From a virus: 64,000 nt of DNA. Shown here in pieces: positions 103-61,649 of this stretch. The stretch is taken from positions 1-64,000 of the IMG/VR virus record IMGVR_UViG_3300010938_000006; one strand, written 5' to 3'. Below the pieces are notes generated by a model. It was not told where the DNA came from, made no database searches, and worked only from the letters and a program-made list of their open reading frames with translations. The translations under genes were made by a program, and so were the position numbers. How positions within the stretch are numbered: position 1 is the stretch's first letter; every line of letters begins with the position of its first letter.

Positions 103-111
103 GTTATCTCC

Positions 112-3432: not shown

Positions 3433-3464
3433 ATTATACCACTCTTTAAAAAGAATAACCAGAT

Positions 3465-4400: not shown

Positions 4401-4409
4401 ACTAACCTC

Positions 4410-4700: not shown

Positions 4701-4720
4701 GCATACTTTTTTTACGTTCT

Positions 4721-6326: not shown

Positions 6327-6543
6327 ACAGCATTTTAATTATAGCAGCATTGCCTTTTGTGATCAATATATATTTATCTAAATTACAAAAATCAGTTTTA
6401 TGGTAGAATCATTTATCGTAATTGAAGTCTTTGCAACGATAATAATAAGATTCATCAATTATATCTAAAATTTGTATTACAATAGATCCAGAAATTAAGC
6501 AATCATTTTTGTTAAACTTAGGGGCGTAAGCCTCTTTTTTCAT
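6319..6543 (-). pseudogene. LLY-tail family small ORF interrupted by in-frame TGA (6409-6411)
   Basis: ATG 6543. Reads MKKEAYAPKFNKNDCLISGS...NYDK*FYHK...AAIIKMLYE. The final TATGAATAA overlaps the start of the next gene. Confidence 0.55.
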
Positions 6544-7045
6544 ATAACACTCTCAAATAGTAGTCAATATTTTGTTCGGTGGGAGGTCTAGAACGAAGTA
6601 GAGGGTCCATTAAATCTCCTTGGTCCTCAATTTCTTTATCTACATGCGAAACATTATAACAGTGTAATAGTTCATGTAAAAGAACTATACGAATTTCATA
6701 GTCCTTAAGACTATCTGATAATTCTATATAACAGTACAAAGGATTGACATAGGAAGATCCTAATCGTACATAATCGTCAACATCTTGTGAAGAATCTACA
6801 ATATTTACAACAATAGGTCTTAATCCAAAGGTAAAACTAAATAATTTGCCATCTAACCTTTTATTGAATTCTGCAGCGTATTCTAAGGTTTTCATTCCTT
6901 CATAGTTATTGTCTAATACAGTAAATACTGGAGCGGGCATAAATATATCTCGCTCTCTAAGAATAGTTGATATTCTTATCCCAACGTACAGGTTTATAGC
7001 TATGGTCATTAAAATCATGCTTAAATTTTTAATGAATTTTATCAT
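6518..7045 (-). CDS. membrane-anchored zinc metalloprotease (HExxH)
   Basis: N-terminal TM helix and HELLHCYNVSH zinc-binding motif. Confidence 0.5.
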   Translation of the reverse strand: MIKFIKNLSMILMTIAINLYVGIRISTILRERDIFMPAPVFTVLDNNYEGMKTLEYAAEFNKRLDGKLFSFTFGLRPIVVNIVDSSQDVDDYVRLGSSYVNPLYCYIELSDSLKDYEIRIVLLHELLHCYNVSHVDKEIEDQGDLMDPLLRSRPPTEQNIDYYLRVLYEKRGLRP

Positions 7046-7046
7046 A

Positions 7047-9338: not shown

Positions 9339-10365
9339 TTACCCTATCCACTGCTTCTTTAAATTCTTGTGGTTCTAGACCTAGAGATATTCTAACATAT
9401 TCCGGCTTACCAAACAAGTCTCCATTAAGAACTTTTACTTTAGCAGCTTCAAAAGCTTTATCACATTTTGAACCTTTAGGAAGAAAAGCAAACATGCCAT
9501 TAGGAGACATAAACTTTACGTCTGCGATATCTTTATGCAGTGTTTTAAGTACTGTCCTATTCATAGCAAAATCTTTTTGACATAAAGTAACAAAATCATT
9601 GTATATTTCTGGTTTAGAATCAAACAGTTGTTCTAATTTTAATACTATTTGTTGGGAAGCAGAAGACACTCCAGTTGTTGTAATTTCCATATATTCAGAT
9701 GCTAATTCAGCATAAGTAGCATTATTAGTAGCTAAATATCCTATTCTAAGTCCTGATAATCCTAAGGATTTTGAATATGAGTGTATATACATTGAACAAC
9801 TATTCTCTAATCCAAATAAGGTTGGTAAATATATTTTAGAATTATAAGCTCCATCATGAATGAGAGGTAAGTTATCTGCTTGACAATCCATGTTAAAAGC
9901 ATCAAAATCTTGTTGATTCATCATATACCCATCTGGATTATTGGGTAGCGTTAATAAAATAGCTGTTTGATCATCTATCAGCGTATTACTATGAATTACA
10001 TTTAAATCCTCTTTTAAGGCTAGGGTGGGGAAACTTACCCAATAAGGTATTGGTATATATACAGAATCGTAACCTTGGGCCTTTACGGCAGCAAAGGAGG
10101 ATGATATAGCTTGCTTTGCACCATTTGTTATCACGATATATTTATAGCCCGTTTTGTTCTTTAAAAACTCTACTAATTCTGGTATTCCAGTAGAAGGTTT
10201 ATATTCGTGCGTAAGTATGTCATTATTACAGACAATATGGTTGTTTACCCCATGCTTATCTAATACAGATTTAAGGTTAATAGATACTAACTTAGGCTCG
10301 CCTACAGCTAAGTTAATCCAACCTGGAGCCAATTCTTTTCTTAACTGTAAATCAGGTTTACTCAT
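9325..10365 (-). CDS. PLP-dependent aminotransferase (class I/II fold)
   Basis: PLP-lysine motif YSKSLGLSGLRIGY and LPNNPDG, in a 346-aa fold-type I length protein. Its 3' end overlaps the polA ATG. Confidence 0.75.
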   Translation of the reverse strand: MSKPDLQLRKELAPGWINLAVGEPKLVSINLKSVLDKHGVNNHIVCNNDILTHEYKPSTGIPELVEFLKNKTGYKYIVITNGAKQAISSSFAAVKAQGYDSVYIPIPYWVSFPTLALKEDLNVIHSNTLIDDQTAILLTLPNNPDGYMMNQQDFDAFNMDCQADNLPLIHDGAYNSKIYLPTLFGLENSCSMYIHSYSKSLGLSGLRIGYLATNNATYAELASEYMEITTTGVSSASQQIVLKLEQLFDSKPEIYNDFVTLCQKDFAMNRTVLKTLHKDIADVKFMSPNGMFAFLPKGSKCDKAFEAAKVKVLNGDLFGKPEYVRISLGLEPQEFKEAVDRVNAQI

Positions 10366-37799: not shown

Positions 37800-38015
37800 T
37801 TACTCATTATACAAGAGTTTTATCATTTTTTTATTTGTCACTGGTAAACACAATGTTTCCAGCTTTTCAGTGTAGTAAGCTTTGTATTCTTCTGTATTTT
37901 TATTATACAGACTATAAAGATTGCCTTTAGTGGTTTTTCTAACTGACCGTATTTCCCACGTAGTTTTATCTCTTAAATGAAAGTAAACTTACCCTATTTT
38001 ATGCGTCTTAGCCAT
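37800..38015 (-). pseudogene. LLY-tail family ORF interrupted by in-frame TAA (37989-37991)
   Basis: ATG 38015 is embedded in the upstream TATGGCTAA. Reads MAKTHKIG*VYFHLRDKTTWEIRS...NKKMIKLLYNE. Confidence 0.55.
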
Positions 38016-38286
38016 ATAACTTTTGTACCGTATCTTTACTAACACTTCTATCAAAAACTTTCCAGCTATTGATAGTGTCTCTTAATGTGATAAAATCTAT
38101 AGTAATAATCAACCAGTTATATTGTTCGTTATTAACTAGTTTTCGTTTTACTACTATTGCTCCCATTTGTATAGCAGATATAGTATATATCCCACTTGCG
38201 GGTAACTTAAATCCTAAAACACTACCTTTATCGTTTGATATTACTAGATAGTGTCCTATTTTAAATTGTGATATAAATTCACTCAT
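38008..38286 (-). CDS. LLY-tail family small protein
   Basis: FKIGHYLVISN near the N-terminus. Ends TVQKLYG. Confidence 0.55.
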   Translation of the reverse strand: MSEFISQFKIGHYLVISNDKGSVLGFKLPASGIYTISAIQMGAIVVKRKLVNNEQYNWLIITIDFITLRDTINSWKVFDRSVSKDTVQKLYG

Positions 38287-39051: not shown

Positions 39052-39399
39052 TTATTTATATTCGCAAACAATAGGACCAGGCAAATATATGCAAGATTCT
39101 AAGTGTCCTTTATGTTTACAAACCTTAATCTTAGTCTCCTTGCACACTTTCTTAGGTGTCGGCTTAGACGTAGGAGTAGGCGGACAAGGTGTTGGAGTTG
39201 GAGGCACAGGCGTTGGGGTAGGAGCTACGCAACACAAAGGAGGCGTAGGTTTGGGCGTAGCAACAGGAGGAGTAGGACACGGTGTAGAAGACGGTGTAGG
39301 ATTAGAGTATACACTATTGTCTGAGCTACAATCTTCACAACGACCACAACCAAACAATCCCATCAAAATAATTACAAAAAATACATAAAACAGTTTCAT
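39052..39399 (-). CDS. Pro/Thr-rich lipoprotein
   Basis: Signal peptide with lipobox GLFGC, followed by PTPxP repeats and Cys pairs. Confidence 0.65.
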   Translation of the reverse strand: MKLFYVFFVIILMGLFGCGRCEDCSSDNSVYSNPTPSSTPCPTPPVATPKPTPPLCCVAPTPTPVPPTPTPCPPTPTSKPTPKKVCKETKIKVCKHKGHLESCIYLPGPIVCEYK

Positions 39400-40103: not shown

Positions 40104-40291
40104 AATTTTAATAAACCTTTATCATATTCCCAGTGATGATTCGGACATAAATATACCATATTTTGTTTAGTATTTACAACTTTTATCTTAGTATTTTTAG
40201 GAAATTCACTTATACCTTTAAGATGACATACTTCTACATGTTTAGAGTAAGAACATACTTTACATTATTTAGGGATATTCAATCTGTTCAT
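40100..40291 (-). pseudogene. minimal HNH endonuclease with in-frame TAA (40265-40267)
   Basis: MNRLNIPK*CKVCSYSKHVEVCHLKGISEF...NMVYLCPNHHWEYDKGLLKL. ATGA overlaps at both ends. Confidence 0.65.
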
Positions 40292-40593
40292 ATAGGTACG
40301 TAAGCATTAGGACTACCTTTATGTTTATTCCAATAGTATCTTATTGTTCTATTTAAAGTTTTATCTATAATTATTTTTTTAGTACATTTCATGCAAGTTT
40401 TTGAATATTTATGTTTAAATACTCCACACTCACATTTAAATAGTTCAATAGGACTAGAACTATCTTTAATATAACATTTACGACAAGTAATCGAAACTAC
40501 TTGTTTTTTGCTACTGCATCGGCATTTATCGTATTCTATTAATCTTGACATAAAATTGGTACGGGCTGGAAAAGTTGAATTTCTTAGCACCAC
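40288..40593 (-). CDS. Cys-rich (multi zinc-ribbon) hypothetical protein
   Basis: CRC...CRKC...CEC...CMKC pairs in 101 aa. Confidence 0.5.
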   Translation of the reverse strand: MVLRNSTFPARTNFMSRLIEYDKCRCSSKKQVVSITCRKCYIKDSSSPIELFKCECGVFKHKYSKTCMKCTKKIIIDKTLNRTIRYYWNKHKGSPNAYVPI

Positions 40594-40641: not shown

Positions 40642-40878
40642 TTAATTATACAGAATAAAGTCCATCTTGGATGCTTTTTTTATTAGCTTACATCTCATAT
40701 CTATACTCTCACAACTAATCCTAGCTTTTTTCCCAGTACTGTAACAATATAGTTCGTATTGAGCGTATTTGATAGCTAATTCATTAATTACTTTACATAT
40801 CAAAAAGATTTGAGATTGCGCTAGTGGGCGGGGTGCGACTGTAACTTGAATTATATCTCCAGCTTTAAACTTAGTCAT
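40642..40878 (-). CDS. LLY-tail family small protein
   Basis: FKAGDIIQV near the N-terminus. Ends MDFILYN. Confidence 0.55.
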   Translation of the reverse strand: MTKFKAGDIIQVTVAPRPLAQSQIFLICKVINELAIKYAQYELYCYSTGKKARISCESIDMRCKLIKKASKMDFILYN

Positions 40879-41155
40879 AAAGTAATTGTAGTAGTTTTTG
40901 TGAAACTAAAATACTATTTTTATTTAAAGATAAAACAGGGTAATCACAATTAAACCCATTAAGGCTATTAATTCCTGTATGCCGTACTAGTAACCCATTG
41001 TCACTTTTAGGATATCTGTTCTCATATATCAAAGTGATGTTATAAAAAGACTTTTCTTTATAGAGAATAGCTTCAATTCTGTAGACTTCTATGTTGCCTT
41101 CTTCATCATATAGTAACACATGGTCGCCACAATAAAAATTTCCTTTACTCTCCAT
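40871..41155 (-). CDS. LLY-tail family small protein
   Basis: FYCGDHVLLY near the N-terminus. Ends LLQLLYD. Confidence 0.55.
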   Translation of the reverse strand: MESKGNFYCGDHVLLYDEEGNIEVYRIEAILYKEKSFYNITLIYENRYPKSDNGLLVRHTGINSLNGFNCDYPVLSLNKNSILVSQKLLQLLYD

Positions 41156-41386
41156 ATAGCAATGGTCCTAGTTTACCTGCAGGCATAACTAGTTCTGATT
41201 TTGGATCAAATCTTTCTGCGCTCCACTCATAAACCTTTGGTTTCTTTGCATTAACAAACTTAACTTTATACTTAGCATATCCACTAGCAGTAAACAAGAC
41301 ACATTCAATAATAGCTTTAGACTTACCAAATTGCCCTTTGGTAAGAACAATATCGCCCGCATTAAATTTATAAGTTTTATTCTCCA
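41145..41386 (-). CDS. LLY-tail family small protein
   Basis: Start set to ATG 41386 (MENKTYKFNAGDIVL...). Ends LGPLLYGE. Confidence 0.55.
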
Positions 41387-41571
41387 TATAAATCTTCAAC
41401 CATTATACTCTCTCGTATTTTAAATGCAATACCATCTACCCAATTAACAAAAGCTGTTGCCTGATTATCTTGTTTATACAGCTTATGTATTTTAAATCAG
41501 TTTTTAAAAAATAGATTGTCAATTCAATAAACATTAGATACAATCCTCTCCGTCTTTGTGCCCCACATCAT
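41377..41571 (-). pseudogene. LLY-tail family ORF with two in-frame TGA (41524-41526, 41497-41499)
   Basis: MMWGTKTERIVSNVY*IDNLFFKN*FKIHKLYKQDNQATAFVNWVDGIAFKIRESIMVEDLYGE. The end embeds the next ATG. Confidence 0.5.
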
Positions 41572-42096: not shown

Positions 42097-42295
42097 ACAG
42101 TTGTTTAGCCATAGCAGTATTAGGTATTGCTTCAAATATGTAACCGTAGTTGCGAGCCTGAGCTAAAGTGTCCAAATCTTTCTGTGTAGCGTGTTTAGTT
42201 ACTATATAACCATATATTTCAGTTGCGTCTTTAGCTTCTTTAAGACCAAAATTAAAGACAGTACGTAATTCTTTAATGTAATTAAAATCAATCAT
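42089..42295 (-). CDS. LLY-tail family small protein
   Basis: Ends TAMAKQLYE. Confidence 0.5.
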   Translation of the reverse strand: MIDFNYIKELRTVFNFGLKEAKDATEIYGYIVTKHATQKDLDTLAQARNYGYIFEAIPNTAMAKQLYE

Positions 42296-42584
42296 TGTCA
42301 GTTAAATATAGCATAGAGCCTAGTTTGGTATCAATAGGCATTATTGTATCTAGTGGTGTCCACATTCCCATTTTATATTCTTCAATGAAGTGGTCCATCT
42401 CTCTCCAAAATTCATACTTCTTATGCTTACGGCTACGTATTACTGTATAGCTATCGGCTCCCACTAATTTCTTTAAACTTATAGATACAATAGGCCCACT
42501 TCCATTTTTACGGCGCACTTTAGTAACTAGAACATTAAACCTATCTCCAAACGCATTAAATTGCATCATGCGTCCTTTTACCAT
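42288..42584 (-). CDS. LLY-tail family small protein
   Basis: Ends LGSMLYLTDND. Confidence 0.5.
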   Translation of the reverse strand: MVKGRMMQFNAFGDRFNVLVTKVRRKNGSGPIVSISLKKLVGADSYTVIRSRKHKKYEFWREMDHFIEEYKMGMWTPLDTIMPIDTKLGSMLYLTDND

Positions 42585-43187: not shown

Positions 43188-43469
43188 TTACTCTCCGTAT
43201 AATTATAGCAATATCTTATCATTTCGCAATATCTTTTTAGTATATTTTACTAAAGTCTTTTGTCTAAATGTTGTGGTTTGTCCACTAAATGATTTATTTA
43301 AAGCCATTACTTGCCACTCTTGTCTATTCTTATCTCTTGATTTCTTCAATTGTTTCAATATTAATAGTTCTGGTAGACTTGCAAAATTGCCTTCTAGAAT
43401 ATCGCCAACTTTTATATGATTAATTGACTCCATATAATAATCGTCCAAATTTTGAACCGATAATTTCAT
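43188..43469 (-). pseudogene. LLY-tail family ORF whose conserved tail lies beyond an in-frame TAA (43203-43205)
   Basis: ...IKVGDILEGN...KKILRNDKILL*LYGE, then TAA at 43188-43190. The family C-terminus LYGE is only reached by reading through the first TAA. Confidence 0.6.
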
Positions 43470-43626
43470 AATTCTCTAGTAAAATAGACCTTTCTACACG
43501 ATGTGCAAAACCTTGCCTATCCAAAATAATATATTGATCTCCATCCTTTAAGATGATTACAAATACGTTTTTAGTGCGTTTATTTATTGCAAAGTTGCCG
43601 ATTGTAATTGACATGATACTACCCAT
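43420..43626 (-). CDS. LLY-tail family small protein
   Basis: Ends KFGRLLYGVN. Confidence 0.55.
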   Translation of the reverse strand: MGSIMSITIGNFAINKRTKNVFVIILKDGDQYIILDRQGFAHRVERSILLENYEIIGSKFGRLLYGVN

Positions 43627-43864
43627 GTGCTCGAAATGATTCTATTTCATCAATACGTGAACGTCCATCAGCTATTAGCCCACCAAACTTAATAGGTTTT
43701 TTCATATATACTTTATCCGCATCTCGTAAATTCTTTAAACGCATATCAATACCAGTCAATAATTCAGAATAGGGCATGTCCAATTTACGTCTTTTTATAG
43801 AGAGGGCATGGTCGATTTTCGCTCTTTTAGAGGAAGGGGCATGTCCGATTTTTCTTCCTTTCAT
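43619..43864 (-). CDS. basic repeat protein (first gene of the leftward arm)
   Basis: Start set to ATG 43864, after a TTGGAG SD. Has RKIGHAPS/AKIDHALS/RKLDMPYS repeats. Confidence 0.5.
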   Translation of the reverse strand: MKGRKIGHAPSSKRAKIDHALSIKRRKLDMPYSELLTGIDMRLKNLRDADKVYMKKPIKFGGLIADGRSRIDEIESFRAHG

Positions 43865-43934
43865 TTTCAAAACTCCAATTTTTCTGATTTTTCTAATTGT
43901 GTTGATTATGTGATTTTCTTCACAATTCAAAAGT

Positions 43935-43950
43935 TGGCATAGTTTATGCT
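43935..43950 (+). promoter_or_regulatory. sigma-54-type promoter motif P1
   Basis: TGGCATAGTTTATGCT (GG-N10-GC). Confidence 0.45.
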
Positions 43951-43952
43951 AA

Positions 43953-43968
43953 TGCAATCTTCATGCCA
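43953..43968 (-). promoter_or_regulatory. sigma-54-type promoter motif facing the leftward arm
   Basis: Minus strand reads TGGCATGAAGATTGCA, about 75 nt upstream of ATG 43864. Forms an inverted pair with P1. Confidence 0.5.
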
Positions 43969-44116
43969 ATACACTAGCACGCTTATTGCAATTGCAATAC
44001 TGATACCACGGTAACAGTACGGTTCTTGCTATAGAATACTCCAAGCCTAATCTAGGCTAAATATATATCTAAACCTAGACTAGGCTCGATTGGAGTAAAT
44101 TAATAATTATAGCACT

Positions 44117-44132
44117 TGGCATTTATATTGCA
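44117..44132 (+). promoter_or_regulatory. sigma-54-type promoter motif P2
   Basis: TGGCATTTATATTGCA. Full match to TGGCAY-N5-TTGCW. Confidence 0.55.
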
Positions 44133-44250
44133 ATTACTATTAATCGTATAAGAACTTTACATGTTGATATAGTATACATTAGCCTCACTTGCAGCCTAAT
44201 ACTGTATACAATTAATACTAAATTCATAATTGCATTGTGCCTAAATCACT

Positions 44251-44266
44251 TGGCATCGACGTTGCA
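44251..44266 (+). promoter_or_regulatory. sigma-54-type promoter motif P3
   Basis: TGGCATCGACGTTGCA, 57 nt upstream of ATG 44323. Confidence 0.6.
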
Positions 44267-44322
44267 TCTAATACTAATCGAACGTTGCACTAAATGCAAC
44301 TTAACTAATGGAATAAATCACA

Positions 44323-44595
44323 ATGCAAGCTAATCAAGTTAACCGTAAAGAGTCTAAAGAATCGGCGTATAGTCAAGTTAAACGGCTATATAAGTCTGTT
44401 ATCAATACCGCTAATATTAAAGACAACGGTTATAGTGCGTCTCATACCGCTCTATTTGTGTGTTCTAATAAGAGTATTGAGGCTAAGAATATTGATACTA
44501 ATGCATTCTGTACTTGGGTACATGCATTGACGGGTATTAAGAATACCACAACGGAACGGTATCTTAGACTGTTTAAATCTATTGACGTTAAGTAA
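44323..44595 (+). CDS. hypothetical protein (island)
   Basis: 90-aa ORF after a TGGAATAAA SD-like motif. Confidence 0.55.
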   Translation: MQANQVNRKESKESAYSQVKRLYKSVINTANIKDNGYSASHTALFVCSNKSIEAKNIDTNAFCTWVHALTGIKNTTTERYLRLFKSIDVK

Positions 44596-44650
44596 CGTTC
44601 GGCTTGGGTTAAGTTGAACGTATGCTGATAACCCTAAACTTGAGGTATAT

Positions 44651-44803
44651 ATGTAGACCGTGTTAAGGAATGTACAGGAATTCAATATTAACAATGTATT
44701 GAATACGCATGCTGAGACACACGACGTTGTAACTATTATACCGTCGCATAAAGACACTGAGACAGAGTGTATTATATATCTAATTGTGTTAAAGATTAAA
44801 TAG
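44651..44803 (+). pseudogene. small ORF with TAG as codon 2 (44654-44656)
   Basis: SD TTGAGGTATAT, then ATG TAG, then 48 open codons TVLRNVQEFNINNVLNTHAETHDVVTIIPSHKDTETECIIYLIVLKIK. Confidence 0.35.
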
Positions 44804-44811
44804 AGGTGCTT

Positions 44812-45201
44812 ATGCAAGAATTCTGTATTGGAGACATCGTACAACTTAGAGATGGTAACGTTTATAAAATTGAGAACATTCGATATATTCCTCGTGGCCA
44901 TGCTAAAGACGGTATAGGTGGTAATCTGTATACGTTGCATTGCATTACATTTCCCGAAGAATATAAAAGTTATTATGAGACTAGGATGCGTAATGAGGCA
45001 TTAGTTGTGCAATTCTCAAATCAAGTTGACGATAAGTTTATTGAGACTATTAGCGATCCAATGCCTGCAATCGGCGTACCCGCATTAGATAAAAGTGTTA
45101 AGAGTACCTCTAAACTTAAACCTATTGACACTAGGCCGCTTGCTAAAGTTTATATCCTAGCAGAATATAGACAACGTAAACAACTTAGACGCCGTGCCTA
45201 A
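44812..45201 (+). CDS. hypothetical protein with SH3-like FCIGDIVQLRDG strand
   Basis: SD TAGAGGTGCTT then ATG 44812. Confidence 0.55.
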   Translation: MQEFCIGDIVQLRDGNVYKIENIRYIPRGHAKDGIGGNLYTLHCITFPEEYKSYYETRMRNEALVVQFSNQVDDKFIETISDPMPAIGVPALDKSVKSTSKLKPIDTRPLAKVYILAEYRQRKQLRRRA

Positions 45202-45271
45202 TTAGGCTTAAAGTATTGCTTAGCTGTATATAAGTTACACAATATGCTTATTAATAGCAAGCCTAGTATTG

Positions 45272-45287
45272 TGGCATTGACGTTGCA
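45272..45287 (+). promoter_or_regulatory. sigma-54-type promoter motif P4
   Basis: TGGCATTGACGTTGCA, 15/16 identical to P3, 38 nt upstream of ATG 45325. Confidence 0.6.
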
Positions 45288-45324
45288 TTTAATAACAGTG
45301 TAACTCAATATGGAGTAAAGTACA

Positions 45325-45567
45325 ATGAGTGTATACGTAACAATTAGCTGTAACGAATGTAAATCAGACTTAGGATATGGTAACGCCGTTGCATCGGTAA
45401 CTATTCGAGACGGAATAGAGTACCACATACACCACACGTTTAATTGTGGCTGTAAAGATAACATGCAAGCGTGTACTAAAGTGTATAACCCTAAAGAGTA
45501 TGATATAACCGTATGTAAATACTGTAATAGTAAAGATTTATATAGTTCATACGAATGCGACGAATAG
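45325..45567 (+). CDS. Cys-rich zinc-finger protein
   Basis: CNEC...CGC...C...CKYC in 80 aa. SD ATGGAGTAAAG. Confidence 0.55.
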   Translation: MSVYVTISCNECKSDLGYGNAVASVTIRDGIEYHIHHTFNCGCKDNMQACTKVYNPKEYDITVCKYCNSKDLYSSYECDE

Positions 45568-45785
45568 GAATGCATATGGTAACATGGTGTTATAAATGCC
45601 GTAAATTTATATGGGAATGCAAGTGTGCTAAACACAATTGCAATTATTGTAAAGATACTGGAATACAATGGTATTCTATTAGAATTAAAGACGGTATCGA
45701 CGCTGACAGAGACATATGCGACTATTGCAACGCATTCGATAAGAGTATTGAGGCTAATAAACATAAGATTGGAGTGTGCAAATAA
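45555..45785 (+). CDS. Cys-rich zinc-finger protein
   Basis: CYKC..CKC..CNYC...CDYC in 76 aa. Confidence 0.5.
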   Translation: MRRIGMHMVTWCYKCRKFIWECKCAKHNCNYCKDTGIQWYSIRIKDGIDADRDICDYCNAFDKSIEANKHKIGVCK

Positions 45786-45786
45786 C

Positions 45787-46440
45787 ATGCCTAAACCTAA
45801 GATTTACAATTGGCTTAGTATCAATTCTAAACTTGCTAAGATTAGCGGTGTTAAGACGTTTAACTTCGGTATTCCAGCGTATAAGTCTAAGACGGGGTTT
45901 AGTATGTGCCCTAATGCTGCAGCGTGTGCAATTGGCTGTTATGCAACTATGAGGGCATATACATTCTCGAACGTTGCTAAAGTATTCGAAGCAAGGCTAA
46001 AGTTTACCCAATTTGCAGAATTTATACCAACTATGAATGCTGAATTGCAACGCCGTAAAGTACAACGTTTACGGATACATGACAGCGGTGATTTTTATAG
46101 TCGAGAATATTTAGACGCTTGGCTAAGTATTATTAGACTTAATCTCGCCATACAATTCTATGTATATACTAAGATGGTATCAATGTTCAAGTCAATTGTA
46201 GATATCATGCCAAGTAACTTTAATGTGGTGTACTCATACGGCGGTATAGAGGATAAGTTGATTAACCGTGAGACTGACAGGCATTCTTATGTATTCCCAA
46301 GCCTTGACGCATTGCAAGCCAAGGGTTATGCCGATGCATCTAAAGACGATGCCGTGGTATTGGGTACTAATCCTAAGATTAGCTTAGTATATCATGGTAC
46401 TAAGAATTATACTAATACGTATTGGAATAGAGTTAAATAG
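45787..46440 (+). CDS. GP88-like protein (Cys-cluster SMCPNAAACAIGCYA)
   Basis: Start set to ATG 45787 (MPKPKIYNW...). Motifs CPNAAACAIGCYA and RIHDSGDFYS recall the GP88 family. The assignment is from memory only. Confidence 0.45.
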   Translation: MPKPKIYNWLSINSKLAKISGVKTFNFGIPAYKSKTGFSMCPNAAACAIGCYATMRAYTFSNVAKVFEARLKFTQFAEFIPTMNAELQRRKVQRLRIHDSGDFYSREYLDAWLSIIRLNLAIQFYVYTKMVSMFKSIVDIMPSNFNVVYSYGGIEDKLINRETDRHSYVFPSLDALQAKGYADASKDDAVVLGTNPKISLVYHGTKNYTNTYWNRVK

Positions 46441-46448
46441 AGGTAAAT

Positions 46449-46586
46449 ATGCAATTCCATTGTTATAAAGATAAGTATCAAGGGCACGCATTCAAGTATC
46501 CTAATGGTATTGAGGTAAATTGTTACAACGGCAACGTATCATATAGCAACGTGTGTGTGCCAAGCCTTGGAGTAACTAATGTCTAA
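46449..46586 (+). CDS. 45-aa hypothetical protein
   Basis: SD AGAGGTAAAT then ATG. MQFHCYKDKYQGHAFKYPNGIEVNCYNGNVSYSNVCVPSLGVTNV. Confidence 0.4.
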   Translation: MQFHCYKDKYQGHAFKYPNGIEVNCYNGNVSYSNVCVPSLGVTNV

Positions 46587-46686
46587 GATTAAATCATTGA
46601 TTAATAGTTCTACAACTACAACTATTAAATCTAGAATACAATTAGTTGCGGTATATGCTACGGCACTATTGTTAAGACTTATATAG
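46579..46686 (+). CDS. 35-aa hypothetical membrane peptide
   Basis: SD TTGGAGTAACTA then ATG. MSKIKSLINSSTTTTIKSRIQLVAVYATALLLRLI. Confidence 0.35.
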   Translation: MSKIKSLINSSTTTTIKSRIQLVAVYATALLLRLI

Positions 46687-46727
46687 TAGTTATACATAAT
46701 TCTAATTCTATTCAAGGCTAATGCCCT

Positions 46728-46743
46728 TGGCATAGCCAATGCA
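46728..46743 (+). promoter_or_regulatory. sigma-54-type promoter motif P5
   Basis: TGGCATAGCCAATGCA, immediately upstream of ORF 46756. Confidence 0.5.
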
Positions 46744-46755
46744 TTAGGATACAGT

Positions 46756-47373
46756 ATGATACATGATTTAAAGTGTGAATATAGAGGTAACAGAATTAGC
46801 GTGCAACTACTAAGCCAATATAGCGTTGTTAAAGTCAATGATACTTGGGTTAAGTCTGTTATCAATAGTAAATTAAAGTCTTTAATCAATGATATTAAGA
46901 ATGTTATAGATACTGAACATAGAGGTAAACATATGAAGTTAAATAACCGTAGTGTAACGTTACTAGAAGTCTTAGTTACGGGTATCATTATGGGAATGCT
47001 ATGCATGTTTACTATTCCCACTATTAAACTAATGGTAAAGTTGACCAAGCGTGCCGAAAATGCAAGCGTGCAATTAGCACACTAATCTGTAAATACCACG
47101 GTAACGGCAACGGCATTAGACCAAGTTAAGACTAGATGGGTATACGTATATGTACCTAATACTACAGACTGTAAACCCGTTGACATACAATATTGGATTA
47201 AACGCACGGCTAATAGAGTTATCACGTTGTATAAAGACGCACAATGTACCCAATCGTTTGGTACACTAAATGCATTGGATAACTTACGGTATGCTAATGA
47301 TACTACTAAGACGCTATGGGAGGTATCAGGGGATATCGCAACGTTACGTGTTCTATTAATCATATTCCCTTAA
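46756..47373 (+). pseudogene. type IV pilin-like protein interrupted by in-frame TAA (47083-47085)
   Basis: Internal SD AGAGGTAAACAT then ATG 46933. MKLNNRSVTLLEVLVTGIIMGMLCMF resembles a prepilin N-terminus. After the TAA, 95 further open codons contain a Cys pair (TDCKP...AQCTQ) but no start codon. Confidence 0.45.
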
Positions 47374-47416
47374 CAATTGAGTATTAAACTATAAACTATA
47401 GATTGGAGTAAATACA

Positions 47417-47728
47417 ATGAGTATCTCTAAAGTGTATAATATTAGACTTGATTTATATGAATTAGTTGACAACGGATACGGTGAACCGGCAACTTTAGAT
47501 ACACACGGTGAATCTATTGGTGAACTAATTGAGAATGTATTCTTCGAATATATCGGTAACAATGGAGACGATGCCATGTATGGTAACGGCGTGGATAACC
47601 TTGCAGAATTAGACGCTGCAACTAGGATTAAGGTTATTAATCTATTAGTTAAGACGTATAATGATTTAGTTGAACACGGTATCACTGACAGCGTATTCCT
47701 AAAGTATAAACAGACGGTTAAGGTGTAA
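47417..47728 (+). CDS. hypothetical acidic protein
   Basis: SD GATTGGAGTAAATACA then ATG. 103 aa. Confidence 0.6.
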   Translation: MSISKVYNIRLDLYELVDNGYGEPATLDTHGESIGELIENVFFEYIGNNGDDAMYGNGVDNLAELDAATRIKVINLLVKTYNDLVEHGITDSVFLKYKQTVKV

Positions 47729-47729
47729 C

Positions 47730-47939
47730 GTGTTACGTTCGGAATGCATATACTGTAACGGTATGGGTATATATTCTATTCAACTTGACACTGAGACTTG
47801 GCATACTGAATTGTGTAAACATTGCATTCCTAATTGCAATACGTGTGCCGATACTCGACGTGTAGAGTATGAGACTAGTAAACCGTGGCGGCCTAATGAA
47901 CGGTTTATAGAGCATAAACAGTGTCCAAATTGTAAATGA
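47730..47939 (+). CDS. DnaJ-type zinc-finger-like small protein
   Basis: CIYCNGMG ... CKHC ... CNTC ... CPNC. GTG start after AAGGTG. Confidence 0.5.
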   Translation: MLRSECIYCNGMGIYSIQLDTETWHTELCKHCIPNCNTCADTRRVEYETSKPWRPNERFIEHKQCPNCK

Positions 47940-47945
47940 GGATAT

Positions 47946-48086
47946 ATGCTTAATATTATTAATACAATTGTTATTGGAATGCTATTCAGCATATGGAGTA
48001 ACGAAGGATTAGTTAATGTTATCCTAAAGTTATCGTTCTTAGTTCTATTAGTTGTGAATATTTTAAACATTGCAGGTAAACTTTAA
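47946..48086 (+). CDS. 46-aa membrane peptide
   Basis: SD TGAGGATAT then ATG. MLNIINTIVIGMLFSIWSNEGLVNVILKLSFLVLLVVNILNIAGKL. Confidence 0.45.
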   Translation: MLNIINTIVIGMLFSIWSNEGLVNVILKLSFLVLLVVNILNIAGKL

Positions 48087-48099
48087 TTGAGATAAATAT

Positions 48100-48336
48100 A
48101 TGATTTTAAAGATCAATGCTAAATGCTCCGATTTATTTAGTGCGACTATTGAGCATAACAACGGCGACGTGCTATTGGAATATGATGGGTACGTACTTGA
48201 TTTTATGCCTAATGAGCATTATGGAGACTATATAGAATTGAGTATTGACACTGAGACAGGCAAAATTGTAGACTGGCCTAAGAATGCTGATAAGTTGATT
48301 AAACAGTTTATTGCTAAGCATAATGCTAAAGAATAG
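48100..48336 (+). CDS. hypothetical protein
   Basis: 78-aa ORF. Confidence 0.55.
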   Translation: MILKINAKCSDLFSATIEHNNGDVLLEYDGYVLDFMPNEHYGDYIELSIDTETGKIVDWPKNADKLIKQFIAKHNAKE

Positions 48337-48513
48337 ATGTAATCGACGTGCCAAGAATTGTTTAATTAACTTCATAATTCAATACTTTATCTAGATAATA
48401 CTCATTGCTATTATTAGTCTATGAGTATTAAACATAGAGACGGTACGGCTAATCTTAATAAAGTACAGCCTAATAATATTATATATAAGATTGCAGTATA
48501 ATTGAGGTAAATT

Positions 48514-48642
48514 ATGTATTCTGTAAATCAAGACGCTAATAATGCTTAATTGTGGCATGTTATTAACCTTGACACGTTTACAATTGTAAAGACTTTTAAT
48601 AGTAAAGACGATGCAACTAAGTATATGAAGTCTCTTAACTAA
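48514..48642 (+). pseudogene. small ORF interrupted by in-frame TAA (48547-48549)
   Basis: SD ATTGAGGTAAATT then ATG. MYSVNQDANNA*LWHVINLDTFTIVKTFNSKDDATKYMKSLN. Confidence 0.45.
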
Positions 48643-48654
48643 TGGAGTAAACAT

Positions 48655-49044
48655 ATGGATAACCTAATGGATAAGATTGCCCTTGAACGTTTACAGGCTG
48701 AATTAATCCAGCGTCGTGATAAGTTACAGGCTGAGACTAATACTATCGGTCTATTCCCGCCTAGTGAATTAAAAGTGTTAAAATCAGACTTGCAAGTTAC
48801 GTGCTATTTTATTGACCAAATTGACGCTGAATTAGAATACGTCGAACGTCAATTAGGTACCTATGCTAATCCTTTTATTGGCAATTATAGTGCCAAGTCT
48901 GGCATTGACGCCGCTAATAAAGATAGCATTCGAGACGCCCTGCAGAATGCGGGCATAGATAAGAATACTTTAACAACGGATAATGCTGATAATGATAATA
49001 TTGGCTTAGTTGATATTATTGACTTCGAGACTGGCCAAGGATAA
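48655..49044 (+). CDS. hypothetical protein
   Basis: SD ATGGAGTAAACAT then ATG. 129 aa. Confidence 0.6.
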   Translation: MDNLMDKIALERLQAELIQRRDKLQAETNTIGLFPPSELKVLKSDLQVTCYFIDQIDAELEYVERQLGTYANPFIGNYSAKSGIDAANKDSIRDALQNAGIDKNTLTTDNADNDNIGLVDIIDFETGQG

Positions 49045-49599
49045 CTTATATAGTTAACATTTACAGTAAAGGCACAATTAGTTAAGGGTTTAGGTATAGG
49101 CATATACATAGATAAGGGTTTATACTTGTAATTCCTATGCCTAGTTATCAATATAACCTAGTATAGTCTTAGTTGAATACTAGTTACTAGATATATTTAT
49201 ATAGTAACTGTTAAGTATTAATACACTAGTGGCAATTAATCACACTAGATATATAGATAAGTATTTAATAAGATTAGATAATAAGACTGTTATTGTATAG
49301 TATTTATATGGTATATAGCAACTATATTCACCATATCATACCCTCTGTATATTTATAATTAATCATTATCACTATTAAATCTGTCTCATACGCACTCATT
49401 ATATCACACTATTTACAATAAGTCAATACATTATTTAGATAATGTACCTAGTATACTACTACTATACTAGTTAATTATGTACTAATTATGGGGTGAGTGT
49501 GCTAACAATAGCATATTATACTTATTTACTATTATCATTATATGATATAAGTATATTATTATTTAATTATTATATTGCGCTTCTTATGCCGACAGATTT

Positions 49600-49610
49600 C
49601 CCCCCCCCCC
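49600..49610. repeat. C11 homopolymer
   Basis: Run of 11 C followed by TATATACCCC. Confidence 0.9.
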
Positions 49611-49971
49611 TATATACCCCTTAAGAATTAGCATTATATTATATAAGTATAATAGTATTATACGATATTAGTATTTAATCATTATATCATAATAGTATAT
49701 TATTACAATTCTTGTGCCGAGTGAGTGTGGCCCGATTTTTGCAATATAATCATTATAGTATAATATCATAATTTAATACTTTACTATTATTAGAATATAG
49801 TAGTATATACACTTTAGCTAATAAGTTAATATATTTGTATATGTTATGAAGTATGCAATAGGTGTGTAAGGATTATATATAGATAAGTAGTTGATATAAT
49901 TGAGAAAGGGGTATACGGTGGGAAATTTACCTCCTCCCCACACCCCTAGAGGTACAAAGACCTTGCAAACA

Positions 49972-50027
49972 GTTTTGAAATTTTTAAAAAAATTGAAAAA
50001 CGGGCATAGATATGGTACTATCTAGAC
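49972..50027 (+). promoter_or_regulatory. repeat element R1 (A-tract / CGGGC / GGTA / CTAGAC)
   Basis: TTTTGAAATTTTTAAAAAAATTGAAAAACGGGCATAGATATGGTACTATCTAGAC, similar to R2. Confidence 0.4.
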
Positions 50028-50306
50028 ATGCACGAGCTCTATATAGTAACTAAGTGCCTACAAGCTTTGAACCTAGACTTAATAGGATTCCCTCAAATGA
50101 TTATGATTATTAAGGTAGGAAGTATAGTCAAGGTTAATAGAGAACATACTATCATAGATACAGTAAATAAAGAAAACAAAATACATAATATATACATAGA
50201 CTTAATCCATCCTAGCTTAGCTAATAATCTATTAGTAAATAGAAAATCCTTCTACGAGTATACAGAGAAGTTCAAAGGACCAATGGTAGACCTCCTATAC
50301 AAATAA
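50028..50306 (+). CDS. LLY-tail family small protein
   Basis: IKVGSIVKVNREH strand. Ends MVDLLYK. The true start may be the internal MIMII. Confidence 0.5.
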   Translation: MHELYIVTKCLQALNLDLIGFPQMIMIIKVGSIVKVNREHTIIDTVNKENKIHNIYIDLIHPSLANNLLVNRKSFYEYTEKFKGPMVDLLYK

Positions 50307-54286: not shown

Positions 54287-55906
54287 ATGATTCCTGATAC
54301 AATAAAGGAACATAATACTGAAGGTAGGCCACTACGAATACATGAACTTGATATTGAAGCGCTTGCTAAGTGGTTACACGATAATAAAATACGTACCACG
54401 CAAGGTAAGCTAATACAACCTTTGCATGAAGGACATATTGAAGTAATTACAGATCCAGCAAGATTTAAAGTTTTAGCGTGTGGAAGACGTTGGGGTAAAA
54501 CACTTTTAACATCTTTAATGGCATTAGCAGTACTAATGCAAATGAATAGACGTGTTTGGATTGTTGCTCCAGATTATAGTCTATGCGAAAAAGTATTTAG
54601 AGAATTATATAATATTCTGGTAAACCAGTTGAAAATTATTCAACCTGGAAAACCAGGAGGCGGTAGAGCCCGCAATCAAAAAGGCGATTATTATTTGGAA
54701 ACGCCGTGGGGCTCTGTTCTAGAAGCTAAATCAATGGAAAGTCCAGATTCACTTGCGGGTGAAGCGAACGACTTAGTTATTGTTGATGAAGCTGCACTAG
54801 ACTCAAAACTAGAAGATATTTGGGTACAGATGTTGCAGCCTACCTTGATGGATAAGCAGGGCAGTGCAATTTTTATTTCTACCCCTCGTGGAAAAAATTC
54901 TTTTTACAAATTATTTCTTTTCGGAAACTACGGTCGTCGTCAAAGAGATGGTAAATTATCTATTACTATAGACGAAGAGACTGGAGTTTCTAATGACATG
55001 CAAGAGTGGAGTTCTTTTCAAAGAACTAGTTATGATAATCCCCTACTTGCAACAACTCCTGAAAAATCTAAGGAAGAAATTGACTCAGCGTACCGAAGGG
55101 CAATCCTTTCAGGTAAGCTTCAAAAATTCAAACAAGAATACCTAGCTGATTTTGAATCAATCCCCGATACTTGTTTTCCTGGATTTAGAGTAGAAGAAAC
55201 AGAAAAGAAGAAATTTCCTCATGTTATTGATTATAACTGGCATCCATTATCTGGACCAGTGTTTGCTGCTTGCGATCATAACTATGCAAAACCAGCTTCA
55301 ACTATTTTTGCACAGATGAATATAAATGGAGATATTGTAATCTTTGATGAAAAGTTTACTAAAAATACCACCTCATATATGCAAGCGCAACAGATTCTTG
55401 ATAAAGAAAAAGAATTAAATAAAACTGCTATGCAGATTTATCAAGCAGAATGTGTTGAAAGCAAATTTAGAAATCACATTAAGTTTAAAAGTATTGTTGC
55501 AGATATTAGCGGCGATCAACTTCAACTTAATGGTAGAACAGCGTGGGATGATTTTGAATCAGTTTTGGGAAGAAGACCAGTTGGACTAAGACAAGATAGA
55601 GAAACTGGATGTAATATAATTAGATTGTGGTTAGAATATCCACAATTTGATCAAAAAGGTAGTCCAGTATTTGATTCTAATAAAGATCAAGTCACTTTCC
55701 CTAAAATATTCATCACAAGAAATTGTGTAAATCTTATTTATGCTTTAAGTACCGCTACGTTTAAGAAAACAAAAGGCGGAGCATTAAAAGAAGATTATGA
55801 TGAAACTCCAGAAGGTTATGAAGGGCTAATTGATGCTCTCAGATACTTAATGGTTTATTTGTTTCATGATAAAGGAACTCATTTTACGGTTATGAAGGGA
55901 TTCTAA
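54287..55906 (+). CDS. terL: terminase large subunit
   Basis: Walker A ACGRRWGKT, Walker B LVIVDEAA, C-terminal nuclease-size domain. Confidence 0.85.
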   Translation: MIPDTIKEHNTEGRPLRIHELDIEALAKWLHDNKIRTTQGKLIQPLHEGHIEVITDPARFKVLACGRRWGKTLLTSLMALAVLMQMNRRVWIVAPDYSLCEKVFRELYNILVNQLKIIQPGKPGGGRARNQKGDYYLETPWGSVLEAKSMESPDSLAGEANDLVIVDEAALDSKLEDIWVQMLQPTLMDKQGSAIFISTPRGKNSFYKLFLFGNYGRRQRDGKLSITIDEETGVSNDMQEWSSFQRTSYDNPLLATTPEKSKEEIDSAYRRAILSGKLQKFKQEYLADFESIPDTCFPGFRVEETEKKKFPHVIDYNWHPLSGPVFAACDHNYAKPASTIFAQMNINGDIVIFDEKFTKNTTSYMQAQQILDKEKELNKTAMQIYQAECVESKFRNHIKFKSIVADISGDQLQLNGRTAWDDFESVLGRRPVGLRQDRETGCNIIRLWLEYPQFDQKGSPVFDSNKDQVTFPKIFITRNCVNLIYALSTATFKKTKGGALKEDYDETPEGYEGLIDALRYLMVYLFHDKGTHFTVMKGF

Positions 55907-60326: not shown

Positions 60327-61649
60327 ATGGCTCAGGTAATTTCATTAGCTGATGCGGCAGTACTTTCTAATAATATCCTTGTTGAAGGTATTATTGCTGA
60401 CATCATTAGCGTTGACGAATGGTTTCGTTATCTACCGTTCGTCGTATTTGAAGGTCTTTCATATACCTTCAGTCGTGAAAACGCAATTGGTTCTGCGGAC
60501 TTCGCTTCTCCTGGAACGAACTTAAACCAGTCTAAATATCAGGCTGGTGCGACGTTTGTTCCGGTGAATGTGAATCTCGCTGCGATCATCGCTGACATCA
60601 TCCTAGATGGTCAAATCGAAGATCAATTTAGCGAATCCAATGACCAACTTCAGGTTCAAATTTCATCAAAAGCGAAGAACATTGCTCGTATTTATATGAA
60701 TGCGATTGTCAATGCTCGCCGCCTTTCTGCTCTATCAACGAGCAACAACGGCCCCGTCGGAATTGCTGACCGTTTTAACGGTATGGCGTCTATTCTTGAT
60801 GCGGAACAAGGCAATGCGGCTGATGTGAACCACCCGTTCTATAACAACGGCGCTTCTACTCAGAGCCTTGCTCTAGTTGAAGATGATCCTTCTAGCGCCC
60901 GTGTCGGTCGTCCTGGCCGTGTTTACACGCTTGAAGATCTTGACGATCTAATAGACCGTGTTACTGGTGCGAAGCCGGATTTCCTCATGATGCACTCACG
61001 AGATATCCGAACGCTACGAGTTCTACTCCGCAATACTGGCGGTGGAACGGATGCGCAAGCGATCCAACAGCAAGGTCTTGGCAATGCTAAGCCCATGCTT
61101 TATTATCAAGATATTCCTGTGTTCCGTAATGACTTTATCAGTCGTTATGAGCCGGTGAACGTCTCTTCAGGTCTAACTATTTCCTCAGTTACCGATGCGG
61201 ATACTGTAGTTCTTTCAGGTTCTACGTCTGCCCTCGCTACTCAGCTTCTACTTCGTGGAAGTGATGGCGTGATGTATCGTTATCCGATTGTTTCTGGTGC
61301 GGGAACTGCTACGATTGATGTTATGAACTCTGGTTCGTTCTTCGATCCTGAGCAAAATAAGCTCGTTGCTCGTCAACCCCTAAATACGTCAGGTCTATTC
61401 CCGGTGTCTTCAGTGGCTGTTGCGGCTGAGCGTTTAGATGGCTCTGCGATTTATTGCGGATGCTGGGGCGAATATAAAGGCGTGGTCGGCTTCACGTCAG
61501 CGAATAACGCTGGTCTAAAGCTTGAATACGTCGGTCCTCGTGAAGATGAGAATGCGTATCAATATCGCCTTAAATGGTATTGCGGATTCGATCTTTATAA
61601 TCGTCTAAATCTTGCTCGCATGAAAGACGTATTACCGCTAGGTGCATAA
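60327..61649 (+). CDS. putative major capsid protein
   Basis: 440 aa, SD TAAGGAGAG. Markedly GC-richer, CGT/GGT/GCT-biased codons. Followed by a perfect 10-bp terminator. Position after the scaffold gene. Confidence 0.65.
   Translation: MAQVISLADAAVLSNNILVEGIIADIISVDEWFRYLPFVVFEGLSYTFSRENAIGSADFASPGTNLNQSKYQAGATFVPVNVNLAAIIADIILDGQIEDQFSESNDQLQVQISSKAKNIARIYMNAIVNARRLSALSTSNNGPVGIADRFNGMASILDAEQGNAADVNHPFYNNGASTQSLALVEDDPSSARVGRPGRVYTLEDLDDLIDRVTGAKPDFLMMHSRDIRTLRVLLRNTGGGTDAQAIQQQGLGNAKPMLYYQDIPVFRNDFISRYEPVNVSSGLTISSVTDADTVVLSGSTSALATQLLLRGSDGVMYRYPIVSGAGTATIDVMNSGSFFDPEQNKLVARQPLNTSGLFPVSSVAVAAERLDGSAIYCGCWGEYKGVVGFTSANNAGLKLEYVGPREDENAYQYRLKWYCGFDLYNRLNLARMKDVLPLGA

Follow-up and report, generated by a model that had tools for sequence, protein, structure and literature searches.

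A sharply bordered 6-kb GP88 block of an uncultured tailed phage is kept nearly free of a family of short DNA words and may be a leading-end early operon

The DNA analysed here is a stretch of 64,000 nucleotides (positions 1 to 64,000 of the IMG/VR record IMGVR_UViG_3300010938_000006; the window) from an uncultured tailed phage of ~115 kb and ~33% GC, whose GP88 protein lies on a contig of 114,940 bp. Genes of the left arm of the window (1-43930) lie on the minus strand; besides numerous small ones, they encode a family-A DNA polymerase, a primase-helicase and a ligase. The right arm has its genes on the plus strand, among them those for the large terminase (54287-55906) and the major capsid protein (60327-61649). 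The segment between them, 43931-49900 (the block), is one rightward accessory operon followed by a non-coding tail. An earlier note, made from the sequence alone, had singled out its coding part, 43931-49049 (the island), as different in composition. We show that selection at the nucleotide level continues to act against short words in the DNA of the block, on both strands and in coding and non-coding parts alike. The purged set comprises VAAA/TTTB (GAAA/TTTC, CAAA/TTTG and AAAA/TTTT), long purine or pyrimidine runs, AGCT, GGAC and others, and within genes these words are avoided by neighbour-dependent choice of synonymous codons.

Among cultured phages, the nearest share at most 29% terminase identity with the window phage. 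IMG/VR holds a family of relatives with terminase identities of 72-78%, two of them on contigs of ~104 kb, and a close relative is represented by the Logan contigs L110 and L111 (samples SRR29476933 and SRR29476932). This relative is 96% identical to the window in the terminase region and 77-85% identical over most of the island coding DNA, where it differs at 785 of the 4686 aligned island sites (17% divergence). Near-identity searches with the island DNA gave no match among GenBank phages, an exact-sequence look-up of the window GP88 gave no record and a single-protein locus search with GP88 returned nothing, but an alignment query did find loci (given as L numbers below). A Bacteroidetes-type host is unlikely in view of the purine/G peak found at -13 to -8 in genes of the arms.

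The operon consists of ~14 small lineage-specific genes around a conserved GP88-family gene and occupies 44323-49044. Measured against L110/L111, the ratio of nonsynonymous to synonymous substitution (dN/dS) is 0.06-0.27 in 10 of the 13 sense open reading frames (ORFs) tested; as most values are this low, the plus-strand genes are real, which bears out the coding direction proposed earlier. The exceptions are a peptide of 35 amino acids (aa; 0.70), the ORF at 47730-47939 (0.50) and an alternative frame at 47135-47269, which was rejected at 1.53. The genes of the operon are the following:

44323-44595, plus strand: orphan, 90 aa; dN/dS 0.21; no family match
44812-45201, plus strand: orphan, 129 aa, the most conserved of the island; dN/dS 0.11
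45325-45567, plus strand: Cys-rich small protein with CxxC, 80 aa; dN/dS 0.14
45576-45785 (start maybe 45555 or 45570), plus strand: Cys-rich small protein with a CxxCxDxG motif, 69 aa
45787-46440, plus strand: GP88-family protein (PF17338), 217 aa; Pfam match; dN/dS 0.15
46449-46586, plus strand: small orphan, 45 aa; dN/dS 0.27
46579-46686, plus strand: weakly supported 35-aa peptide with a hydrophobic C-terminus; dN/dS 0.70
46756-47373, plus strand: prepilin-like protein gene, split by a TAA at 47083-47085; one 206-aa ORF in the relative
47417-47728, plus strand: acidic orphan, 103 aa; dN/dS 0.06
47730-47939, plus strand: Cys-rich protein, 69 aa, with CxxCxGxG and three more CxxC motifs; dN/dS 0.50
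47946-48086, plus strand: hydrophobic (membrane) peptide, 46 aa
48100-48336, plus strand: 78-aa protein; five other viral loci have a homologue close to GP88
48655-49044, plus strand: orphan, 129 aa, the final island gene; dN/dS 0.14

GP88 was the sole match when ten island proteins were scanned against Pfam, PHROGs and NCBIfam. It scores 127 bits against a gathering threshold of 24.4 (E = 1.3e-36) and has 915 homologues; the acidic 103-aa protein has just 2 among 5.8 billion proteins. The structural model of GP88 (predicted local distance difference test score 82) is a partial beta/alpha barrel in which the first strand leads into a C41-x5-C47-x3-C51 loop. A sequence search of the PDB retrieved nothing, the fold search gave generic TIM-barrel-like matches, none better than E = 0.02, and the literature found under the name GP88 concerns an unrelated human protein. 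A role as nuclease is without support from the sequence or fold searches. The earlier inventory of the island thus stands for GP88, for three Cys-rich proteins with CxxC motifs and for a prepilin-like N-terminus, and no family matches were found for the other proteins. The content had also been called orphan-like throughout. This is true apart from GP88 but not special to the island, because ~36-52.8 kb is mostly without homologues in the family: only GP88 and one small protein have them, and neither the leftward early genes (36-43.9 kb) nor those of 50-52.8 kb, all of arm-type composition, have any in the relatives.

In the prepilin-like gene, the frames 46756-47085 and 47086-47373 correspond to the single ORF of the relative, which has CAA where the window has TAA. 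In type IV pilins and pseudopilins a short leader precedes G/(F/I/V)TL(I/L)E, and a hydrophobic stretch in helical form comes next. The N-terminus of the relative follows this canonical prepilin motif (KG/ITLLEVLV), whereas the window has RS/VTLLEVLV and the premature TAA; N-terminal pilin matches in NCBIfam (E = 0.002-0.05) are far under the cut-offs. An internal start at 46933 with a strong Shine-Dalgarno (SD) site precedes the pilin-type helix, and the half of the gene downstream of the TAA is under strong purifying selection (dN/dS 0.06). The TAA suggests a recent nonsense mutation, read-through or re-initiation. Across the island, the SD variants described earlier are present, GGAGTAAA in three copies and GAGGTAAA in two, and GGAG or GAGG (the GGAGTAAA/GAGGTAAA type) precedes 75% of the island starts compared with 20% in the left arm and 33% in the right arm.

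Six long antisense ORFs reported for the island exist at the sizes given and are dense relative to the left arm. Seven antisense open stretches of at least 90 codons fall in 5.1 kb, whereas equal left-arm windows hold a mean of 1.4 and a maximum of 5 (the island is 3-5 times denser than the arms). Taken by itself, this density might suggest that the antisense ORFs are the real genes, a reading that retains next to no probability: four of the six contain stops in the close relative, where their apparent dN/dS is 0.24-1.09, and it is the sense ORFs that have the SD sites, the Pfam match of GP88 and the low dN/dS. The open antisense frames are accounted for by antisense stops that fall mostly in one phase, with fewer phase-2 stops in the island (28 per 1000 codons) than outside it (43-44).

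The difference in composition is real and stronger than first described. It delimits the following domain:

43931-49903, no strand: sharply bordered domain of word exclusion and distinct composition; matched, borders included, in L110/L111

The final CAAA before the domain is at 43928 and GAAA returns only at 49904. Hence, the start given in the earlier note was right but its end came too early, and the AT-rich gap behind the island belongs to the domain, which reaches ~49900. Each 1-kb segment across 44001-50000 lies at a dinucleotide distance of 0.15-0.28 from the left arm, compared with 0.087 ± 0.024 (maximum 0.16) inside the left arm. The observed/expected ratio is 1.13-1.20 for CpG and 1.28-1.30 for TpA in the block, against ~0.75 and ~0.95. 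Counts likewise confirm the richness in ACG, CGT, GTA and TAC (165-182 per 2 kb in 44001-48000 vs 71-139 elsewhere, ~1.7-fold) and the scarcity of A/T homopolymers (0-1 runs of at least 5 per 2 kb vs 3-21 elsewhere). Purine-any-pyrimidine (RNY) codon periodicity, described earlier as strong, is raised but modestly (0.378 vs 0.322 and 0.336 in the arms) and is a minor part of the effect, weaker than the phase bias of the stops; the GC content at third codon positions (GC3) is 0.32 vs 0.25.

The most extreme feature of the domain is its vocabulary. On the plus strand of 43931-49049, the VAAA/TTTB words total 25 where ~260-300 are expected from the arms; GAAA and TTTC each occur once, CAAA 5, TTTG 3, AAAA 7 and TTTT 8 times, and the arms predict 17-114 of each. 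Observed/expected ratios of single words are 0.04 for GAAA, 0.05 for GGAC, 0.10 for AAAA and 0.12 for CAAA, and AGCT (0.16), GATC (0.21) and GAAG (0.22) are further depleted words, whereas TAAA (0.91) and AATT (1.1) are spared and TGCA, ACGT and GCAT are enriched 2.3-3 times. Purine or pyrimidine runs of at least 8 are absent from the block and occur at 6-7.5 per kb in the arms. The rule is unusually clean in that codon context admits AAA only as TAAA and TTT only as TTTA: TAAA accounts for 91 of the 104 AAA in the island, Lys AAA is preceded by T in 50 of 54 cases, Phe TTT stands before A in 18 of 22, and Glu GAA is followed by A a single time. Reverse complements are depleted about as strongly as the words themselves on the same strand, and the rule therefore acts on the duplex. 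Avoidance of a Cas12a-type TTTV protospacer-adjacent motif (PAM) does not agree with this pattern, in which TTTT is removed but TTTA kept.

The exclusion also extends to the non-coding end of the block:

49050-49900, no strand: AT-rich, repeat-laden non-coding tail that obeys the word exclusion

These 850 nt contain direct and inverted repeats and a conserved core (49190-49577), which is 95-97% identical to the relative compared with ~82% for the island genes, followed by a window-specific 128-nt insertion with a C11 run (49578-49705). The core is not a structured RNA, as its predicted fold has z = -0.5.

Within the genes, the exclusion results from the context-dependent choice among synonymous codons. 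When synonymous codons were shuffled with the proteins and the island's own codon usage kept (1000 trials), the island genes contained 120.5 ± 8.7 forbidden words (minimum 90) compared with 24 observed; the same shuffle of left-arm genes revealed a deficit of merely 9%. The exclusion has moreover been maintained since the divergence from the relative. Placing the 785 substitutions at random predicts 96 ± 10 forbidden words, while L110/L111 has 17, and the reverse simulation, from relative to window, predicts 99 ± 11 vs 23.

These results bear on the proposal, made in the earlier note, that the island is an acquired module. A recent horizontal acquisition from a donor with another genome signature would leave the composition as a passive relic, and it would suit the distinct composition with its higher GC3 and CpG, the SD usage unlike that of the arms and the window GP88, which is 65-66% identical to L030/L031 (higher-GC viral contigs) vs 42-58% to its own family. 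It would also suit the synonymous divergence (pS) from the relative, which is 0.23-0.60 in the island and 0.03-0.14 in core genes (3-4 times). However, a passive relic is excluded by the shuffle deficit from neighbour-dependent synonymous choice, the exclusion held over 17% divergence and the compliant non-coding tail. Relatives carry a syntenic GP88 island, likewise shifted in composition, at the same map position, and the junctions are common to three independent assemblies. The families listed for the scanned window proteins include no integrase, a search for repeats at the borders gave none, and no tRNA lies there; an Rfam scan of the whole window yielded tRNA-Met only, and the sole tRNA is at 21717. 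Recent acquisition thus appears improbable. The block shares anomalous composition and orphan genes with horizontally acquired islands and morons, but differs from these in its position kept among relatives, its lack of mobility genes and border repeats and its actively maintained signature.

The raised pS and the sharp borders could also reflect a mutational bias specific to this region, caused by another replication or repair regime and involving no selection on words. Such a bias must spare TAAA yet remove GAAA, CAAA and AAAA, identically on both strands, and the non-coding core follows the rule without fast change. The words are kept out either by selection or by a very odd, context-specific mutation process, and we consider a bias of this kind most improbable.

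A constraint at the level of transcription or RNA might instead disfavour U or A runs in a long promoter-proximal transcript, through pausing, termination, slippage or RNase cleavage. Promoters at both domain borders and the absence of T runs agree with it, as does a terminator scan that found none on the plus strand and a sole terminator-like site on the minus strand. Against it stand the about equal depletion of words and reverse complements on the same strand, the missing RNA-structure signal in the tail and the ordinary composition of the leftward early genes, which are under the same promoter type. We judge that there is little chance of an RNA-level explanation.

The promoters in question are of the sigma-54 type. 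The pattern TGGCAT-N5-WTGC occurs 8 times in the window compared with 0.22 expected (36-fold), and 6 of the 8 lie in 43935-46742. Five plus-strand sites are intergenic in the island, and three of these fall in the 330 bp that precede its first gene:

43935-43950, plus strand: sigma-54-type promoter P1 (TGGCATAGTTTATGCT), first of a rightward tandem array
43953-43968, minus strand: sigma-54-type promoter facing left (TGGCATGAAGATTGCA), in face-to-face overlap with P1 and upstream of the first left-arm gene (ATG 43867)
43975-43990, plus strand: weaker sigma-54-type site (TAGCACGCTTATTGCA, one mismatch)
44117-44132, plus strand: sigma-54-type promoter P2 (TGGCATTTATATTGCA)
44251-44266, plus strand: sigma-54-type promoter P3 (TGGCATCGACGTTGCA); a conserved GTTGC..GCAAC hairpin lies between it and the first gene
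45272-45287, plus strand: sigma-54-type promoter P4 (TGGCATTGACGTTGCA)
46728-46743, plus strand: sigma-54-type promoter P5 (TGGCATAGCCAATGCA)
49728-49743, plus strand: variant sigma-54-type site (TGGCCCGATTTTTGCA), kept in the relative

The island therefore has sigma-54-like promoters, as the earlier note had it, but these are not exclusive to it: one site faces the left arm (43953-43968) and others lie at 36025 and 38679. In L110/L111 the -24 and -12 elements are kept and the spacers vary. Over 1.5 Mb of related loci, TGGCA-N7-TGC occurs 187 times compared with ~19 expected, and the free positions of these 187 family sites reproduce the sigma-54 consensus YTGGCAC(G)-N4-TTGCW. ATGAGAC iterons lie upstream of the promoters of relatives, whereas the window is without them. 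A scan for sigma-70 promoters gave 57 sites vs 46.5 ± 6.9 in shuffled sequence, which is not significant. Like bacterial sigma-54 (RpoN) promoters (TGGCAC-N5-TTGCW), the sites have a fixed GG/GC spacing, are intergenic and co-oriented with genes, and combine kept elements with variable spacers. They differ in standing in a phage early region, in forming tandem arrays and one face-to-face overlapping pair, and in the reading TGGCAT. Neither an enhancer-binding (Sigma54_activat) domain nor a sigma factor or RNA polymerase domain is among the families listed (25 of 34) for 61 window proteins. Judging from sequence, transcription may depend on host sigma-54.

Related GP88 loci place the block in a wider context. 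GP88 neighbourhoods of relatives are island-like under a model trained on the window and give the best tetranucleotide correlations among all fetched DNA. With the GP88 gene itself removed, the shift of the flanking DNA relative to its own locus correlates with the shift of the window in 28 of 29 viral loci (mean r 0.24 vs -0.12 ± 0.15 in controls, p = 1.5e-14). The extreme purge of VAAA/TTTB is not general (17 of the 29 loci, mean ratio 1.0); the window lineage shows it most strongly, and close members of the family show it in part. On viral contigs of at least 50 kb, GP88 lies at most 4.5 kb from a contig end in 11 of 23 cases compared with ~2.8 expected (counted from the loci table, L030-L109), and these end-proximal homologues mostly read inward from the contig end. 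Assembly breaks at hypervariable DNA could be an alternative cause of this position.

A shift shared among loci would also be consistent with a structural or protein-binding constraint on the duplex, which keeps the block free of A-tracts and purine runs and rich in flexible pyrimidine-purine (YR) steps. Possible reasons are the mechanics of packaging or ejection, the avoidance of contacts with a nucleoid protein or with RNA polymerase (UP-elements), or a phage protein coat (TGAGAC sites). The exclusion is strand-symmetric and includes non-coding DNA, purine-purine and pyrimidine-pyrimidine (RR/YY) dinucleotides are all depleted and RY/YR all enriched, RYRY and YRYR tetramers are 1.7-1.9 times enriched with RRRR at 0.41, A-runs are tolerated only after a TpA step, and TGAGAC is over-represented in the GP88 islands of several relatives. 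Yet depletion is uneven within the RY classes (GAAA 0.04 vs TAAA 0.91; AGCT 0.16 vs AATT 1.1) and therefore looks like the work of specific words and not of a general mechanical rule, and most GP88 loci do not share the VAAA/TTTB exclusion. We regard a constraint of this kind as rather unlikely.

TGAGAC/GTCTCA itself shows a distribution worth recording. In the window, 11 of its 18 copies are within the 6-kb domain; in L110 and L111 all 20 copies are in the island, and L049 has 49 copies in 13 kb. Sites were noted in L002 (1336-1387), L075 (4930-4990), L064 (170-240), L049, L054 and L087. Several relatives have it in 15-nt iteron-like arrays that precede sigma-54-type promoters, and in GTCTCA-N-TGAGAC palindromes inside genes. 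Part of the GAGAC enrichment in the window follows from the avoidance of GAAA ahead of codons that start with A.

One further GP88 locus has a vocabulary of its own. L071 (1-10645; IMGVR_UViG_3300049489_000494) contains 24 AAA and 7 TTT in 10.6 kb at 44% GC, and encodes short ORFs of SV(W/R/Y)(G/D) tandem repeats at 1704-1920, 2180-2310 and 3368-3420. As a donor of the block it was rejected, since its rule differs (TAAA is absent too) and its GP88 is merely 46% identical.

An island just as sharp and strong was computed here for phage T5, whose terminal repeat (1-10219 of NC_005859, L112) served as a control. The dinucleotide distance is 0.18-0.26 inside the repeat and 0.03-0.13 outside; relative to the 20 kb that follow, GCGC is enriched 8.7-fold and AGAG/CTCT depleted 4-fold. 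Such islands may thus be usable as a signature of leading-end DNA. The T5 repeat is the first DNA into the cell, and its small pre-early genes are followed by a 1-kb non-coding injection stop signal. Similarly, the block consists of small, mostly orphan genes followed by ~1 kb of repeat-rich non-coding DNA (the 850-nt tail), lies between an early-gene arm and the terminase/head module, and stands out in composition to the same degree, with compositional borders that coincide with its own. In T5-like phages, restriction, clustered regularly interspaced short palindromic repeats (CRISPR) and Ssp systems act only with sites in the first-step-transfer region (PMC10644984). Hence, there is a known reason for word purging confined to the leading end. 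The large terminase of the window is distantly related to that of T5 (29.8% identity over 252 aa), and the DNA polymerases are 26.7% identical.

Phage T7 offers a second comparison. At its leading end, the tandem host-polymerase promoters A1-A3 drive an early operon of several kb with anti-defence and takeover genes. The block resembles this class I region in that tandem promoters stand at the left edge of one putatively early operon. T7 differs in its sigma-70 promoters, its 160-bp repeat and its unrelated genome type.

Taken together, these parallels suggest that the block might be a leading-end, pre-early host-takeover operon purged of words recognised by defences, which is our preferred reading but one that we hold to be evenly poised. 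The map position kept among relatives, the shift shared around GP88 and the frequent nearness of GP88 to contig ends also speak for it. The block would be the leading segment, in the cell and expressed before protective functions of the phage exist, and as such, like the first-step-transfer repeat of T5-like phages, the sole part open to host nucleases that read sequence (restriction enzymes, CRISPR PAM readers or similar). Selection on the exposed DNA would then remove the recognised words, and the genes may serve host takeover, superinfection exclusion or anti-defence. By analogy with T5, the block may be the first DNA to enter and may form a terminal repeat. The early or host-takeover role suggested in the earlier note fits the layout, though not as a separately acquired relic. 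The purge resembles the avoidance of restriction sites and PAMs in other phages in that short words are depleted on both strands at synonymous sites. It differs in being confined to one sharp 6-kb domain, in being far more extreme (GAAA/TTTC ~0.04) and in targeting a family of A/T-run words.

Several observations weigh against the leading-end reading. We know of no restriction site or PAM that matches an exclusion of VAAA/TTTB with TAAA/TTTA spared. Sigma-54 promoters require an ATP-dependent activator, and that no activator gene was seen among the listed window families is awkward for immediate-early genes. The portal and capsid show no similarity to those of T5, and homologues of T5 A1, A2 and dmp are absent from the ten island proteins scanned against Pfam, PHROGs and NCBIfam. 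The T5 layout is mirrored, in that the non-coding tail of the block faces the structural genes, and the vocabulary of the T5 repeat is not that of the island, as the two shift vectors are weakly correlated (r = 0.19). A duplicate-end test for a terminal repeat on the relative contig L049 found a single copy of its start. Moreover, a pS 3-4 times that of the core means that island alleles are older or exchanged among lineages, so that the block is also a product of recombination with a common pool of islands. T5 further differs in having sigma-70 promoters, where sigma-54-type ones are found here, and a repeat of 10.2 kb compared with a block of ~6 kb.

If the leading-end reading is right, sequence alone would mark the defence-exposed segment of uncultured phage genomes, and the purged words would be a readout of what defences, or the phage's own enzymes that destroy host DNA, recognise. 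As a tentative and more doubtful extension, many uncultured phages, including ones of ~100 kb, might carry a leading-end, sigma-54-driven pre-early "GP88 island" whose vocabulary is policed by selection, here with a near-total exclusion of VAAA/TTTB and purine runs. This would imply that some undescribed activity, of the host or of the phage, recognises A/T-run words in the DNA as it comes in, and it would be the first case of a phage early programme relying on sigma-54. Tandem sigma-54-type promoters heading a phage early operon would be unusual, and a literature search on sigma-54 promoters in phage genomes or early operons found nothing relevant; with such promoters comes the question of which activator would trigger them when infection begins.

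At its right end the block is bounded by a further conserved element:

49889-49965, plus strand: right border with an extended -10 (TGATATAAT), then a non-coding element (GGGGTATACGG..CCTCCCC..ACCCC..)

The element has the form GGGG(T)ATACGG..CACCTCCCC..ACCCC..GGGG and is followed by an A/T palindrome and a sigma-70-like promoter. L002 (3860), L008 (793) and L052 (6610) have it at the same place, and with the window it thus marks the right border in four phages. In L002 and L052 a sigma-54-type promoter lies directly upstream of it, and the window has the extended -10 (TGATATAAT) instead.

Other features lie in the arms. Three 33-nt direct repeats (GGGCATGTCCAATTT core) at 43772-43851 fall within the first leftward gene (ATG 43867) and encode an 11-aa repeat; 85-165 bp away from the promoter palindrome, they could also serve to bind protein. 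Many small proteins (~70-115 aa) end in ..LLYG, ..ILYD or ..LFG, in the window at 43420-43626, 42288-42584, 40871-41155, 41145-41399, 38008-38286 and 50028-50306 and in the relatives L002 and L011 at 6000-8600. Judging from these endings, they look like a multigene family across both arms and the relatives. On the minus strand, 39052-39399 encodes a 115-aa protein with a lipoprotein-like signal (..LFGCG) followed by a Pro/Thr-rich, Cys-rich part, and this GC-rich stretch gives rise to long antisense ORFs. Finally, compared with L111 the left-arm early genes are a mosaic (40288-40593, 40871-41155), in which some genes are near-identical (pS ~0.15) and adjoining alleles far diverged (pS ~0.5, nonsynonymous divergence ~0.34).

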